Part shown: positions 1 through 34,859 of the stretch, in pieces
Position numbering within the stretch: position 1 is the stretch's first letter
Layout of the letters: every line of letters begins with the position of its first letter
Origin: a virus
Taxonomy: Duplodnaviria > Heunggongvirae > Uroviricota > Caudoviricetes
Reading direction: 5' to 3' (one strand)
Virus record (IMG/VR): IMGVR_UViG_2718218168_000007
Span: 1 to 40,384 of that record
Length of the DNA stretch: 40,384 nucleotides
Program-made: the position numbers and the translations under genes
The notes under the pieces: generated by a model
What the model was told of the DNA's origin: nothing
The model's input: only the letters and a program-made list of their open reading frames with translations
The model's database searches: none

Positions 1-540
1 TTCATGAAGTCCACTTATTGATAGAATTGAAAATCATCAATAACATAGAGGTTGTATACATGCTATCGTTCCATCGATAATTCACAGATACATTATTCGT
101 AGAGGCACTCCAGGAATGCTTTCAGTTATTCATTGGGGTTAAAAGAATTTACATGAATAATGCCAGTGAAGACTAACCAGAATAATAAACTCAAGAATAA
201 GATTATCATCAATTATAACGTCAAATATATAAGATATTTATTTCGCTTTTCGGTAGGAAAAACCGAAGAATTGAATAACGGCCAGTATGTTGGTAATGCT
301 GCCAACTTACTGATTTAGTGTATGATGGTGATTTTAAGGTGCTTGCGTGGCTTCCATTTCCATCAGATGTCCTTCCTGCTCCGCTACTGAAGGCGTGGTG
401 CGTAACGGCAAAAGCACTGCCGGGCATCAGCGCTATCTCTGCTCTCATTGCCGTAAAACATGGCAACTACAGTTCACTTACACCGCCTCTCAGCCCGGTA
501 CGCACCAGAAAATCATTGATATGGCCATGAATGGCGTCGG

Positions 541-1844
<1,304 letters not shown>

Positions 1845-1904
1845 GTCTTTAAGTGATAAGCATAAACCGCAGCACGATCTTCTTGCATACGACGTGCTAC
1901 GGTT

Positions 1905-2459
1905 TCATTTATCTCCGACCGGAAACTTCTTATACAGTGTCGATATACCAACATCATAGATGATCGCCACCTTTTGGCGAGGAACGCCTGATGCAATTAA
2001 TCGCCCGGCCTGCGCCCATTGTTCTGGTGTAAGTTTGGGACGACGTCCACCAATTCGTCCCTGTGCGCGAGCTGCTTCCAGTCCAGCTTTTGTTCGTTCA
2101 ACAATCAGTTCACGCTCCATTTCAGCCAGGGCACCCATCACATGAAAGAAAAAGCGCCCCATTGGGGTACTGGTATCAATTGAATCCGTCAGACTACGAA
2201 AGTTGATGCCTCGTTCGCGCAACTCCTCCACCAGCACGACAAGATGCCGCATACTGCGCCCCAGTCGGTCCAGTTTCCAGACCACCAGCGTGTCACCTGC
2301 CGATAATGTCCTGAGCAGCTTTTTCAGTCCTGGTCTGTCGGACTTTGTACCGCTTATCTTGTCTTCAAAAATCAGCTCACATCCTGCACACTCCAGCGCA
2401 TTACGCTGTAATTCCGTATTCTGGTTATTTGTTGATACGCGGACATAGCCAATAAGCAT
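1905..2459 (-). CDS. pin: Serine DNA invertase, Pin/Gin/Cin/Hin family
   Basis: MLIGYVRVSTNNQNTELQ...LVVWKLDRLGRSMRHL...GRIGGRRPKLT is the resolvase/invertase catalytic core plus C-terminal HTH. Start placed at the internal ATG (2459) preceded by AGGGGA rather than the ORF-track start at 2504. Confidence 0.9.
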   Translation of the reverse strand: MLIGYVRVSTNNQNTELQRNALECAGCELIFEDKISGTKSDRPGLKKLLRTLSAGDTLVVWKLDRLGRSMRHLVVLVEELRERGINFRSLTDSIDTSTPMGRFFFHVMGALAEMERELIVERTKAGLEAARAQGRIGGRRPKLTPEQWAQAGRLIASGVPRQKVAIIYDVGISTLYKKFPVGDK

Positions 2460-2486
2460 GAGCATTCCCCTGAGTAAAAACCGGGG

Positions 2487-2879
2487 ATGATGCCAGTTAG
2501 CCATAATCTCTGCATTTTCTTAAACGTTGGTTTGGGAGAAGCGGCTAAAAGGAATGTAGGGACAGGGGCGAATCAGATACCTGATATGGGTAGCTTCACG
2601 CTTTCTGTTTCAGGTACTGGATATCAAAAATTACCATCAGGTTTTATTCTTCAGTGGGGCTCAATCGGCGCTCCAGGCATTGCACAGGATGTAGTAACCC
2701 ATTTCCCAATTGCATTTCCAAACAGATGTCTGCGTGTTTTGGTCTCACAAGACTATACACCAGATAGCGGGGCTGTTGGTTATATTGCCTGTGCAGGTTT
2801 TAGTCCCGACCCGGTTAAATTTATATCCAGAGCCAGTAATCCTGGCCTCGGCGCTTCATTTTTAGCGTTAGGCTGTTAA
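2487..2879 (+). CDS. Alternative tail-fibre C-terminal cassette (silent in this orientation)
   Basis: Plus-strand ORF inside the invertible segment with no independent start context; it begins at the left crossover site and encodes a fibre-tip-like sequence that would fuse to the constant fibre N-terminus after inversion. Confidence 0.5.
2515..2540. repeat. Left crossover site of the invertible segment (gix/pix-like)
   Basis: tttcttaaacgttggtttgggagaa resembles the recalled gix consensus; its 14-nt core ttggtttgggagaa recurs inverted at 4383-4396. Confidence 0.6.
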
Positions 2880-2900
2880 TTTAGCTATATGGAGTGAAAA

Positions 2901-3341
2901 ATGAATTACATATATTCCGCGACTACAAACTCTTTCTATCCGCTGGAGATGAAAGAGGATTACACTCAAGCTGACTCATGGCCAGATGATGCTGTTGAAG
3001 TTGATGAGCAAGTGTATATTGAGTTTTCCGGATTACCGCCGAAAGGAAAAATCCGTATCGCTGGAGAAAATGGTTTTCCTGCATGGTCCGAAATTCCACC
3101 ACCAACACATGAGGAACAAATTGCTGCAGCCGAACTGGAGAAGCAGCAATTGATTAATCAGGCCAACGATTATATGAACAGTAAACAATGGCCTGGTAAA
3201 GCGGCTATTGGTCGTCTGAAAGGTGACGAACTGGCGCAATATAATTTGTGGCTGGATTACCTGGACGCACTGGAACTGGTCGATACTTCCGGTGCGCCAG
3301 ATATTGAATGGCCTACGCCTCCGGCAGTTCAGGCCAGATGA
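2901..3341 (+). CDS. Tail fibre assembly protein (alternative copy, Tfa')
   Basis: 146-aa product with the Tfa-like C-terminus LWLDYLDALELVDTSGAPDIEWPTPP; convergent with the other tfa, as in Mu U/U'. Confidence 0.8.
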   Translation: MNYIYSATTNSFYPLEMKEDYTQADSWPDDAVEVDEQVYIEFSGLPPKGKIRIAGENGFPAWSEIPPPTHEEQIAAAELEKQQLINQANDYMNSKQWPGKAAIGRLKGDELAQYNLWLDYLDALELVDTSGAPDIEWPTPPAVQAR

Positions 3342-3915
3342 CATCCGGCGCGGTGCTCGTATCTGTTGCCGTCACCGCGTCAATGTAATCCAGCACAGCG
3401 TTAAGTCGGGTGGTTTCTGCCTGCGTCAGCTTCCGCCCGGCCTGCAATTTCAGTTGAATCAGACTGATGGAAGCCATTGCAGTATCAATCAGTGACTGAC
3501 GCAGTGCTTCTGCCGCGTCTACTGCGGCGCTATGCTGTGCCTCAGTATCGGTCACCCATTTCTTACCATCCCATTTATCGAATGGCGTTAACGGGGCGAT
3601 AGTGGTTGTATTTTCAGGATAATCACCCGGAGCTGTGATTTCTTTGGCGTCTCCCGTTTCGGTGTTATAGACGATTTCACCGCGATGGTCTGGCACATAT
3701 TCCCATGAGTTTAAATCCATCGAACGGCAGATAGCATAACCCGCCTTATGTATACCAGGTTCATCCAGACAGGAATATGCAGGGATACCGACACCAATGG
3801 CAAGATATTCATTTGAAGTAGAAATATATTCCCGAGTTTTACCATCATAGTTATAGACGGTAATATTCCCCGCCTTCGTGGCAATAAGCTCGCTATTTAA
3901 TACGGCGTTATCCAT
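3313..3915 (-). CDS. Tail fibre assembly protein (Tfa, in the expressed orientation)
   Basis: 200-aa product with the Tfa-type C-terminus VLDYIDAVTATDTSTAPDVIWPELP; immediately downstream of the fibre gene on the same strand. Confidence 0.8.
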   Translation of the reverse strand: MDNAVLNSELIATKAGNITVYNYDGKTREYISTSNEYLAIGVGIPAYSCLDEPGIHKAGYAICRSMDLNSWEYVPDHRGEIVYNTETGDAKEITAPGDYPENTTTIAPLTPFDKWDGKKWVTDTEAQHSAAVDAAEALRQSLIDTAMASISLIQLKLQAGRKLTQAETTRLNAVLDYIDAVTATDTSTAPDVIWPELPEA

Positions 3916-4685
3916 TATGCAGCCCTCACGATATAGTTAAATGCAATATTTCGTGGACGGGTTTCACTCCCGCCAGTATTACCGATACTCCCTCGTGAAT
4001 GAAGTGTCGGTGATGGGATCAGACTCCCTCCTGTATTTGTGGCATCAAGTCCACGTCCTTGTGTGTATGTCTTTTTGAAAATCGTAGCCAGTTCCCATTC
4101 ATCTTTTGTGTCGTAACCATCATTGGCAACAACAATATGGCGGTGTTTTTCCAGCATCCCTGTCTGAATGCTCAATAAAACACGTCCTGCATCAATACCG
4201 CGCCCGTCATCCCAGCCACGAATAAACTCACCACGTAAATCAGGCAATTTATTTGTCGGATAAGCCTTTGCCAGTTCCGGGTATTCTTCAGCAGAAAAAG
4301 CCGCACCGTTGCATTTCAGCCAGCCTGTTGGCGGTGTGGCTGAAGGCCATGGAACAGGCACACCAACAGGTAATGCAGAGCCTTCTCCCAAACCAAGGTT
4401 TTCGAGAGCCGTTTGCACAGTGCCATCCGATTTGATATCGCCAAACGGATTCTTGCGGCTTAACAGCAGCGCGCGAAGTGCGGTAAGTAACTGGTCGTGC
4501 CGCCCCTTCTCCAGGCTGGCACCGGATGCCTCCACCACGCTGCAAAGTTCCTCCTGCAACATGTCAAAGTAGTCATCATCCAGATCGGTGGCAGGCGTGC
4601 CGGTCTGGGGGTTACCACGGGTAAAACCGTTCTTACCCGCGCCGAACTTATCCTTCTGCGCGGTTTTCGTGTCTATACGATGCAT
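3915..4685 (-). CDS. Tail fibre protein (constant N-terminus 4397-4685, variable C-terminus inside the invertible segment)
   Basis: 256-aa product; the right crossover site lies in the codons for ENLGLGE; position matches e14 stfP-like short fibres. Confidence 0.75.
4383..4408. repeat. Right crossover site of the invertible segment (inside the fibre gene)
   Basis: ttctcccaaaccaaggttttcgagag; the first 14 nt are the exact reverse complement of 2527-2540. Confidence 0.6.
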
Positions 4686-4688
4686 GGA

Positions 4689-5273
4689 TTACTCCGGATA
4701 TTTAAAAATTACGTAGGTATGCGACGGGCAGAGTTTGTTAAGCACACACTCGACAACGGTGTCACCCCAGATACGCAGTGCGGAATCACAGGGATCGCCA
4801 CATGTCATCCAGGTGGTGTTGGTGGTGGCTGGCATGTTGACCTGCCAGTAATACCGCCATTCCGGTGCATTCACCGCGTCAGTACAGGCCGATGAGCAGG
4901 TGAAAGTGCTTTTGTCGTATCGCGTGATGGTGGCATCTGGTCTGCCCAGGGCAGCAAGCTGTGCAAGATAAAAATCCTCGTTGATGCCGCCCGCCAGGTT
5001 AACCTTCGCATCCAGCCGTTGCTGACGCTGGCGAAGGGTCTGCGTTCCCGCCGGAATACATTCATCCGGCAGACCGCACAGACGCTCCCAGCGGTTTATC
5101 AGTTCAGTGGTGGTGCGCGGATCCAGCTCCCGCATCAGGGCATCCGCACGCTGATGAACACGGGTTAATGACGGTGCCGCACCGGCAATCGCCGGATCGC
5201 TGGCTGACCACGCCGGACCGGGCGGCAACAGTGCCGATAACAGGCGGATGTAATCATCGTTTGTCACGTCCAT
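4689..5273 (-). CDS. Phage tail protein, DUF2313 family (Mu gp48 / e14 YmfQ-like)
   Basis: 194-aa product recalled as YmfQ-like; sits between the baseplate J gene and the fibre gene. Confidence 0.7.
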
Positions 5274-6322
5274 GAAATCGTCCCCAGTACCGCCAGTTCG
5301 TTTTTCGCAATGGAGATATTGTCCACCGGTGCAAGCAACTGATGGCTGTATTCCCCGTTCGCACCGGAAATCGCCTCACTGATACGCGATACCTTGAGTT
5401 CTCCCTGCGGATAACCATCACGCAGCAGGAACGAACGCAACTCCGCGGTAATGGCAGCCCGTATTTCTGGTGTGTCCGGCGTCACGCGGATATGAAAATC
5501 CACCGTATGTGCCACCGGCCTGAATACATACAAATCAGAGCCTGCCACCGGGGCCAGTGGCCAGATATGTTGTCTTGCTGCCGTTTCCGTTGACTCTTCC
5601 GGAATGGGATTAATCAGGTCACTGCTGGCAATCATCACACCGACAGTTCCCGTTCCCATCCAGTGACGGTATGTCCATGCGCGGGTAATGCCGGGCACTT
5701 CTTTAGCCCAGACGACATAGTCCCCGTCAGCCCCGCCCTGAGGCGTCCAGTAATACCGCTCAATGACGCGGGCGCGCCACGTTTCCAGCTCTTCAGTATC
5801 AAATCCACCTGTCAGGGTATCTGCCACGCCGGAAGACGGCAGACCATTAACCGGCGTGACCAGGATTAATGACGTACCGTCGTCAGCGTTACCGACCGCG
5901 CCTGCACTTGAGCAGGCGATCGGCACGCGCAGGACACCACCGGAGCTGGTTGCATCGGCAGTTGCCGTGTACTGAACCAGGTCATCGCGCTGAATAACAC
6001 TCCCGGCGGTCACCTTCAGGCCATCGCTGACACCTTCCCAGCGCATATACCCGCTGGCAGCCGTGGCCCCCTTGCGCGGACACCGTTTCATCGCAGCATG
6101 TCGCGCCAGCCAGGACTCATCGCACAGGTCAGGCAGAATGTTCATTGCCAGATAATCGATGTACCCGTAAACCGTATGCAGCGCCGCCGCATACACCTTT
6201 GCCCGCACGTCTTCATCCATGCGCCGGAGCGTGTCGCTGACGTCCAGCCTGGCGAATAAATCGTTACGGAGCATACTGATATTTTCTGTCAGCGTCGGGC
6301 GCTGAAATTCACTGTCCGCCAT
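5264..6322 (-). CDS. Baseplate J-like protein (Mu gp47-like)
   Basis: 352-aa product at the conserved position in a Mu-type baseplate cluster; family assignment by recall. Confidence 0.75.
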
Positions 6323-33717: not shown

Positions 33718-34005
33718 TCCCATGTCTAAATAATAGACAATATTAATGATGGCGATAGTCAAAGCTCTCGCCATGACACTTTATGTTGTATTGAATTATG
33801 CCTCTCTACCACTATATATAGCAAACAACTTTCCAGTACCTCTCCCCAGAATAATATGCTGTCCAATGAGGATAAACAGCAATAAATCCTATCGTTTTAT
33901 AAGTGACGGATGTACATAAAGTTATTAATATGTACTAACAGTTACCTTTCAGGTAAAATGCAAACATTACACAACTGGTTATTTATACAGTTAAGGGGGC
34001 ATAAC

Positions 34006-34476
34006 ATGGCTTACTCAGCTGCAGCGGTTGCTAATGCCTTCATTGAAAAGGCTTTAAAGGGTGAGTTAAAGAATCTGACTCCAATGAAGCTCCAGAAGCT
34101 TCTTTTTTATACTCAATCATGGCATTTAAAGTTACGCGACAACACACCGCTTTTTGATGATCTTTTCGCCAGATGGAAATTCGGGCCTGTTATTCCACCG
34201 CTTTATCATATGTTGAAGAAGTATGGCGCAAACGAAATCACTGAAAAGATTAGCGTCATCTTAGAGTGTGATGGCGAATTAAAAAGAATCACCCCTACAA
34301 TTCAAAAAGATGATGAAGAAGCTCAAGCTCTTATCAATAAAATCATCGAAGTATATGGGAAATTTTCAGGTACTGAACTGTCTAACTTAACACATGCGCC
34401 TGGTACAGCATGGAGCAAGGGAAGTGCAGATGGTGGCCCCATTTCTCATGAGGATATGGCGAAGCATATTCACTAA
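34006..34476 (+). CDS. Panacea-domain (DUF4065)-like protein, putative antitoxin/sensor, in the rexA-equivalent slot
   Basis: Motifs MKLQKLLFYTQSWHL and FARWKFGPVIPPLY fit my recollection of the DUF4065 core; start at the ATG preceded by AAGGGGG (ORF-track start 33910 rejected); visibly AT-rich. Confidence 0.6.
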   Translation: MAYSAAAVANAFIEKALKGELKNLTPMKLQKLLFYTQSWHLKLRDNTPLFDDLFARWKFGPVIPPLYHMLKKYGANEITEKISVILECDGELKRITPTIQKDDEEAQALINKIIEVYGKFSGTELSNLTHAPGTAWSKGSADGGPISHEDMAKHIH

Positions 34477-34859
34477 TGAAGTCGTTTGATAGCATATCTA
34501 TACCCAGTGGCACAAATGTAGGCTCATCGAAAGTATCAAGTGCCGAAGATGAGCCGCCAATTACAGAAAGAATATCCAGAGGTGACGACCTCAATGCTCA
34601 AAAAGCGGCAGATGCCAAGTCAAACAGGCAACTTCGTGAGATCTTGGCAGAAAAAGCGTACCGTGTCGTAAAAAAATCACTTTACGGATGGGCTTTGTTT
34701 CTTTTCTTTCAAGGCTGGTTTTCTATCATTGGGATAAAGGTTTTTTCCGATAAGGTAGTTTTGGCTGTAACAACAGCTGTTACTCTTAATGTATTCGCTG
34801 CTTTTCTTGGTGTTATCAGGGGATTATTCCCAGCTGCCAGTAGAAAAGATAAAAGTTAA
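34476..34859 (+). CDS. Small membrane protein with two C-terminal TM helices, putative toxin/effector, in the rexB-equivalent slot
   Basis: 127-aa product with a hydrophilic N-terminal half, then LYGWALFLFFQGWFSIIGI and VVLAVTTAVTLNVFAAFLGVI; start overlaps the upstream stop (TAATG). Confidence 0.6.
   Translation: MKSFDSISIPSGTNVGSSKVSSAEDEPPITERISRGDDLNAQKAADAKSNRQLREILAEKAYRVVKKSLYGWALFLFFQGWFSIIGIKVFSDKVVLAVTTAVTLNVFAAFLGVIRGLFPAASRKDKS

Follow-up and report, generated by a model that had tools for sequence, protein, structure and literature searches.

The left end of the viral record IMGVR_UViG_2718218168_000007, which was analysed over its whole 40,384 nucleotides (nt) and is called the window here, carries a tail-fibre gene, two fibre assembly genes and a DNA invertase gene within positions 1905–4685. 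This arrangement raises the question of whether the locus is a working inversion switch of the phage tail fibre and, if it is, of which kind. An earlier note on the sequence had proposed an invertible segment that exchanges the fibre end and acts as a host-range switch. Our analysis indicates that the locus is very probably a Pin/Gin-type tail-fibre inversion switch, namely the e14 P-segment system residing in an apparently complete SfV-like prophage. The kind of system is already known: the invertase and the segment are closely allelic to Pin and the P segment of e14.

To determine whether the segment is found in both orientations, the region was compared with public Escherichia coli genomes. 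Among complete records in which at least 80% of the region was covered at one place per record, 86 have the orientation of the window and 75 have the orientation obtained by inverting the segment in silico. For the window's own pair of cassettes, 97.2% single-piece alignments that span both junctions were obtained in both orientations (H1 and H2 compared with H41–H43). A series of cattle isolates with near-identical chromosome lengths (strains 113–140) contains both orientations; of the genomes listed, 10 have the one and 10 have the other, and the chromosomal coordinates of the locus are the same. Comparison of strains 114 and 133, two near-clonal cattle isolates, shows 9524 base pairs (bp) that are identical except for an exact 1863-bp reverse-complemented block, which is bounded by the same 14-mers as the segment of the window. 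In these two strains the invertase (184/184 residues), the expressed fibre (256/256 residues) and both 26-bp crossover sites are identical to those of the window. Both orientations are found across public E. coli genomes, with the breakpoints in the 14-bp cores, and on this comparative evidence related loci do flip. Flipping of the e14 P segment by PinE has been shown experimentally (PMC4272514; PMC12529663), its phase variation has been measured in K-12 (PMC4272514), and inverted P-segment forms have been reported in 33% of 562 database genomes (PMC12529663). The P segment and its flipping were described by Plasterk and van de Putte 1985, as cited in PMC4272514.

The breakpoints coincide with an inverted repeat whose coordinates in the earlier note are borne out. 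The sequence TTGGTTTGGGAGAA is located at 2527–2540 and its reverse complement at 4383–4396, and these are the sole exact copies in the window. The exact inverted match extends to 15 bp, and the arms reach 20 nt at 95% identity (2522–2541 and 4382–4401). By itself the 14-bp repeat is of modest significance, with about 0.014 exact 14-mer inverted pairs expected by chance in 2.8 kb and an inverted repeat of at least 14 bp in 6 of 300 synthetic first-order Markov resamples of the same length; its position and homology are decisive. Each arm is made up of the inner half-site and the central dinucleotide of a 26-bp site, in which two imperfect 12-bp half-sites surround the 2-bp core. The right site, read as the reverse complement, is CTCTCGAAAACC TT GGTTTGGGAGAA, and the core dinucleotide is TT in both sites when they are read in the same sense. 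The description of the sites as gix-like holds, with an AAACC-NN-GGTTT centre observed in both window sites and also in Mu gix and P1 cix (GenBank records). The left site is one base away from its e14 counterpart, and O157 strain 114 has exactly the same sequence there as the window. At the right site, no base differs between the window, the e14 site in stfP (ycfK), its O157 counterpart and the single site of phage SfII. Between the cores the segment measures 1866 bp, in line with the roughly 1.9 kb beside the invertase gene given in the earlier note. In a search of the window the TTGGTTTGGGAGAA 14-mer has no further match with two or fewer mismatches, and AAACCNNGGTTT at one or fewer mismatches gives the two sites and two unrelated places, 15525 and 25090. 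A shufflon or a Min-type system was considered and rejected, as no further crossover sites were found in the window.

Table 1. Features of the invertible fibre locus and its flank, in window coordinates
Feature	Position	Strand	Description
IS1	292–1059		complete, 768 bp, with frames for InsA and InsB; its end lies 11 bp upstream of the PD-T4-3 start codon
GIY-YIG (LEM-3-like) protein	1071–1844	plus	just past the invertase gene; full-length PADLOC PD-T4-3 match, E 2.4e-140
pin-type DNA invertase gene	1905–2459	minus	184 amino acids; reads away from the invertible segment
Candidate recombinational enhancer	2370–2441	minus	in the 5' end of the invertase gene; homology to the cin enhancer
Alternative fibre C-terminus, open reading frame (ORF)	2487–2879	plus	short stub across the left site plus variable part B
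Left 26-bp crossover site	2515–2540		core TT 2527–2528, inner half-site 2529–2540; TTTTCTTAAACG TT GGTTTGGGAGAA
Variable part B	2529–2879	plus	112 amino acids after LGLGE; Pfam Gp53-like_C 5e-15
Tail-fibre assembly (chaperone) gene, pair of part B	2901–3341	plus	Pfam Caudo_TAP 1.5e-37
Tail-fibre assembly (chaperone) gene, pair of part A	3313–3915	minus	Pfam Caudo_TAP 3e-32
Fibre gene	3915–4685	minus	final gene of the long minus-strand late tail operon
Variable part A of the fibre	3915–4394	minus	155 amino acids; now fused to the constant part; Pfam Collar 2e-15
Right 26-bp crossover site	4383–4408		within the fibre gene; core AA 4395–4396, inner half-site 4383–4394
Constant N-terminal fibre part	4397–4685	minus	101 amino acids through LGLGE; outside the segment

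The fibre gene directly follows a gene similar to ymfQ and Mu gp48 at 4689–5273, and its constant part is shared with the e14 StfP N-terminus (103/105 identical) and the SfII fibre N-terminus (99/101). The right site falls at the fibre codons N-L-G-L-G-E, confirming its proposed position inside the gene, and the last codons of the constant part, which end in LGLGE, lie inside the site. The left site falls at N-V-G-L-G-E of the stub-bearing ORF, which the earlier note had recognized as a promoterless alternative C-terminus; this ORF encodes a gp53-like C domain and has no promoter-like site upstream. Variable part A is 66% identical (100/151) to the e14 StfE variable part, and variable part B is 28% identical (27/96) to that of StfP. 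The first 16 residues of part B after LGLGE match the phage SfII fibre. The two variable parts are unrelated to each other, with a best alignment of 17/55 and different Pfam domains, which fits recognition of different receptors. Each is paired with a tail-fibre assembly gene, and the two genes are convergent as had been proposed, with a tail-to-tail overlap of 29 bp (3313–3341). The chaperone of part A is 88% identical (176/200) to e14 TfaE and belongs to the expressed orientation, and that of part B is identical to e14 TfaP at 62 of 96 positions over its C-terminal part. When 2529–4394 is flipped in silico, the constant part comes into frame with part B to give a 213-residue fibre, followed by its own chaperone; the proposed exchange of the fibre C-terminus together with the cognate chaperone is reproduced in this way. 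The same 29-bp overlap is seen between e14 tfaP and tfaE, where the conserved C-terminal peptides are likewise encoded on opposite strands of one piece of DNA. Comparison of the silent cassette (window 2529–3341) with that of an O157 locus (L001 3742–4565) shows 47 of 107 part B residues identical and a diverged chaperone N-terminus. Because the invertase, the expressed fibre and the sites are identical to those of O157 but the silent cassette is not, one cassette in the segment has been exchanged.

The invertase belongs to the Gin/Hin/Cin/Pin group of small serine recombinases, defined here by a length of about 185–195 amino acids, an N-terminal catalytic domain, a C-terminal helix-turn-helix and Ser9. 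Pfam places the Resolvase (9e-52) and HTH_7 (5e-13) domains in it, and its best solved structure is that of Gin (3UJ3, E 1e-93 over residues 1–181). It is identical over 184/184 residues to the O157 protein WP_000905124.1 and is 94.6% identical to e14 PinE (174/184), 82% to Cin (151/184) and 78% to Gin (143/184). The residues Y5, R7, S9, D64, R65 and R68 are all kept, and, judged from the sequence, the domains and catalytic residues are intact. An inactivating change at the catalytic serine, which the earlier note had named as an argument against the switch, was looked for; S9 is present and the protein is full length. End-to-end alignment with Pin, Gin and Cin puts the start at the ATG at 2459, and the mechanical ORF start at 2504 was rejected on this ground. 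NCBIfam yielded sub-threshold matches only, neither the invertase nor the fibre having a specific model there, and PADLOC gave nothing for the invertase or the ORF at 2487–2879. Within the phage collection, phage vB_EcoM-689R6 has the closest invertase (93.5%). This phage was considered as a second example and is uninformative, being a partial genome with pin and mcrA beside a truncated fibre gene.

Members of this recombinase family such as Hin use a Fis-bound enhancer, in which the two Fis sites are spaced by 48 bp. The 5' end of the window invertase gene may contain such an element, as 2370–2441 aligns with nt 19–90 of cin, the part annotated in the P1 record as 'enhancer of Cin-mediated C-segment inversion'. 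The identity over this stretch is 56/72 to P1, 54/72 to Mu and 63/72 to e14. Two Fis-like 15-mers within it, at 2423–2437 and 2375–2389, match GNNYRNNWNNYRNNC (6/7 and 7/7 positions), with their centres 48 bp apart and about 98 bp from the left core. We infer from these likenesses that the region may act as a Fis enhancer. A promoter and terminator scan of 1800–5400 gave no more sites than shuffled sequence, with none upstream of pin or of the silent cassette.

Taken together with the known mechanism of the family, inversion would proceed as follows. Invertase dimers would bind the two 26-bp sites at 2515–2540 and 4383–4408, and the sites would synapse, probably with host Fis at the enhancer inside the invertase gene; inversion would presumably depend on Fis. 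The enzyme would cut both sites at the core, leaving a 2-bp stagger; re-joining requires the same core in the two sites, and it is TT in each. After a 180-degree rotation the strands would be ligated with the 1866 bp flipped. The constant 101 fibre residues would remain joined to the late tail operon in either orientation. In the present orientation the constant part is fused to part A, with its StfE-like Collar domain, and the TfaE-like chaperone comes next; after a flip it would be fused to part B, with its gp53-like C domain, and the second chaperone would come next. Two virion types would then be released by a lysogen population, with different receptor-binding tips, and the two fibre forms would be expected to differ in host range.

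Alignment places the locus as orthologous to the e14 P segment, gene by gene, in keeping with the likeness drawn in the earlier note. The two share gene order and orientation, with ymfQ, the constant fibre part, the invertible block of variable part, tfa, second tfa and second variable part, and then pin; in e14 the corresponding names are ymfQ-stfP-tfaP-tfaE-stfE-pinE, where stfP is ycfK. YmfQ is identical to its window homologue at 192 of 194 positions, and the inner half-site and core, TTGGTTTGGGAGAA, are identical at both ends of the segment. In contrast to e14, which is a defective remnant, the window element has head, tail, lysis, replication and integrase genes. The two also differ beyond pin, where e14 has mcrA and the window has PD-T4-3 and IS1, and the K-12 reference orientation of e14 is opposite to that of the window.

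The earlier comparison with the Mu G segment also stands with regard to the layout, with the constant Sc part outside, Sv-U and U'-S'v inside, and a downstream invertase that reads away from the segment, Gin being the 78% identical enzyme mentioned above. The fibre of Mu likewise follows a gp47/gp48-type baseplate, and the AAACC-NN-GGTTT centre is shared. However, the G segment is about 3 kb long, encodes longer fibres with unrelated domains, and has a TC core dinucleotide and other half-site sequences, and Mu is transposable whereas the window phage is lambdoid and integrase-based. The cix sites of the P1 C segment share the TT core, and their inner half, GGTTTAAGAGAA, resembles that of the window sites, but cin reads towards the segment, which is 4.2 kb long, and the fibre is much larger. 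The Salmonella H segment uses a recombinase of the same family, Hin, with hix-type 26-bp sites and a Fis enhancer. Hin lies inside its own segment and flips a promoter, giving flagellar phase variation, whereas in the window a coding sequence is exchanged and the invertase lies outside the segment.

The serotype-converting Shigella phages SfI, SfII, SfIV and SfV are relatives with a fixed fibre. Their structural module is about 97% identical to that of the window up to the crossover site, but they lack both an invertase and a second site, and have a single C-terminus with a single chaperone, so that the fibre is not switchable. The homology of the window with these phages ends exactly at the right crossover site (window 4382). 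In SfII (L008 1757–1782) one intact 26-bp site is retained in the fibre gene, without an invertase, and is followed by the same 16-residue linker as in the silent C-terminus of the window. The crossover site falls on a joint between fibre modules, because the homology ends there and because SfII keeps both the site and the linker.

Several observations weigh against an active inversion switch. The outer half of the left site is off the AAACC motif by one base (AAACG), although e14 and O157 have this base there as well. The Fis motif is degenerate, and several more 6/7 matches occur within the same 200 nt. The window, as a single assembly, holds one orientation, and flipping in its source strain is something we infer. 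The segment could also be flipped in trans by further invertases of the Pin family present in the cell (PMC12529663), which is compatible with a fibre inversion switch as well.

Another explanation is that the locus is a defence switch of the lysogen, instead of or besides a host-range switch, in which the product of the ORF at 2487–2879 is made as a free protein that blocks phage adsorption and inversion toggles which free C-terminal domain is made. Inversion of the e14 P segment is reported to create StfE2, composed of the stfE stub and the StfP C-terminus, which blocks T2 adsorption (Kirigo et al. 2025, PMC12529663). The stub architecture of the window is the same, with a stub peptide that compares with e14 MPFACYFFIFINVGLGE, the equivalent ORF is annotated as a gene in RefSeq, and the defence gene PD-T4-3 is located just past pin. 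With only 27 of 96 part B residues identical to those of StfP, however, the T2-blocking activity is not transferable by homology, and the start at 2487 has a poorly spaced Shine-Dalgarno sequence and no promoter-like site ahead of it. As the prophage looks complete, a role of the fibre in the virion is the simpler explanation, and we consider a defence switch unlikely. An extension of it, in which the stub ORF (2487–2879, or the stub with part A after a flip) and PD-T4-3 form a small phase-variable defence island and the lone site of the Sf phages is a joint for module exchange, is similarly improbable.

It is still less likely that the locus is a relic, a repeat with invertase remnants in which the segment no longer flips in this lineage. 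The single orientation in the window, and the IS1 and other rearrangements nearby, would agree with such decay, but the invertase is not truncated and keeps every catalytic residue, and both it, at 100% identity, and the 26-bp sites are the same as in O157 isolates that differ from each other by the inversion. The strain 114/133 inversion, the e14 orthology and the identical invertase and sites exclude a relic in practice. A chance inverted repeat without recombination function, which the 2% of resamples of the 2.8-kb region reaching at least 14 bp might suggest, has a negligible probability and was rejected on the strain 114/133 breakpoints and the e14 orthology, as the arms lie exactly at the fibre module boundary beside the invertase, agree with the crossover sites of e14 and with the gix/cix pattern, and are the breakpoints of real inversions. 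The fibre inversion switch remains the explanation that we prefer.

The rest of the window describes the phage in which this switch resides. The element is an SfV/SfII-like prophage of the E. coli/Shigella type; its head is of the HK97 type and its contractile tail of the Mu type, its early region is lambdoid, and it has an integrase. Its relatives sit at a tRNA-Thr gene next to proA. Because it is an SfV/SfII-like element with head, tail, early region and integrase, it has the appearance of a complete phage related to the one whose decay gave rise to e14. e14 and phage 689R6 hold mcrA where the window holds PD-T4-3, and for this reason the position after pin looks like a variable slot for defence genes. 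The 9-mers flanking IS1 (cagtatgtt and gatattgca) differ, and this lack of a target duplication suggests an IS1-mediated rearrangement or deletion. In the closest relative (L009 13061–13914) a protein annotated with a Panacea domain and a hypothetical gene are located beside the repressor region, with a counterpart in the window at 33910–34859 on the plus strand; the two genes may work as a pair within the immunity region, either as toxin and antitoxin or in defence.

The significance of the locus beyond annotation is small. It shows the complete form of the defective e14, an SfV-like phage that has a tail of the Mu type and a fibre switch driven by Pin. Assemblies of such strains may legitimately differ by a 1.9-kb flip, and the fibre ORFs should for this reason be annotated as one constant part with two alternative C-termini, and annotation as separate 'gp53-like' and 'tail fibre' genes should be avoided. 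For phage biology, the locus provides one more natural pair of receptor-binding cassettes.

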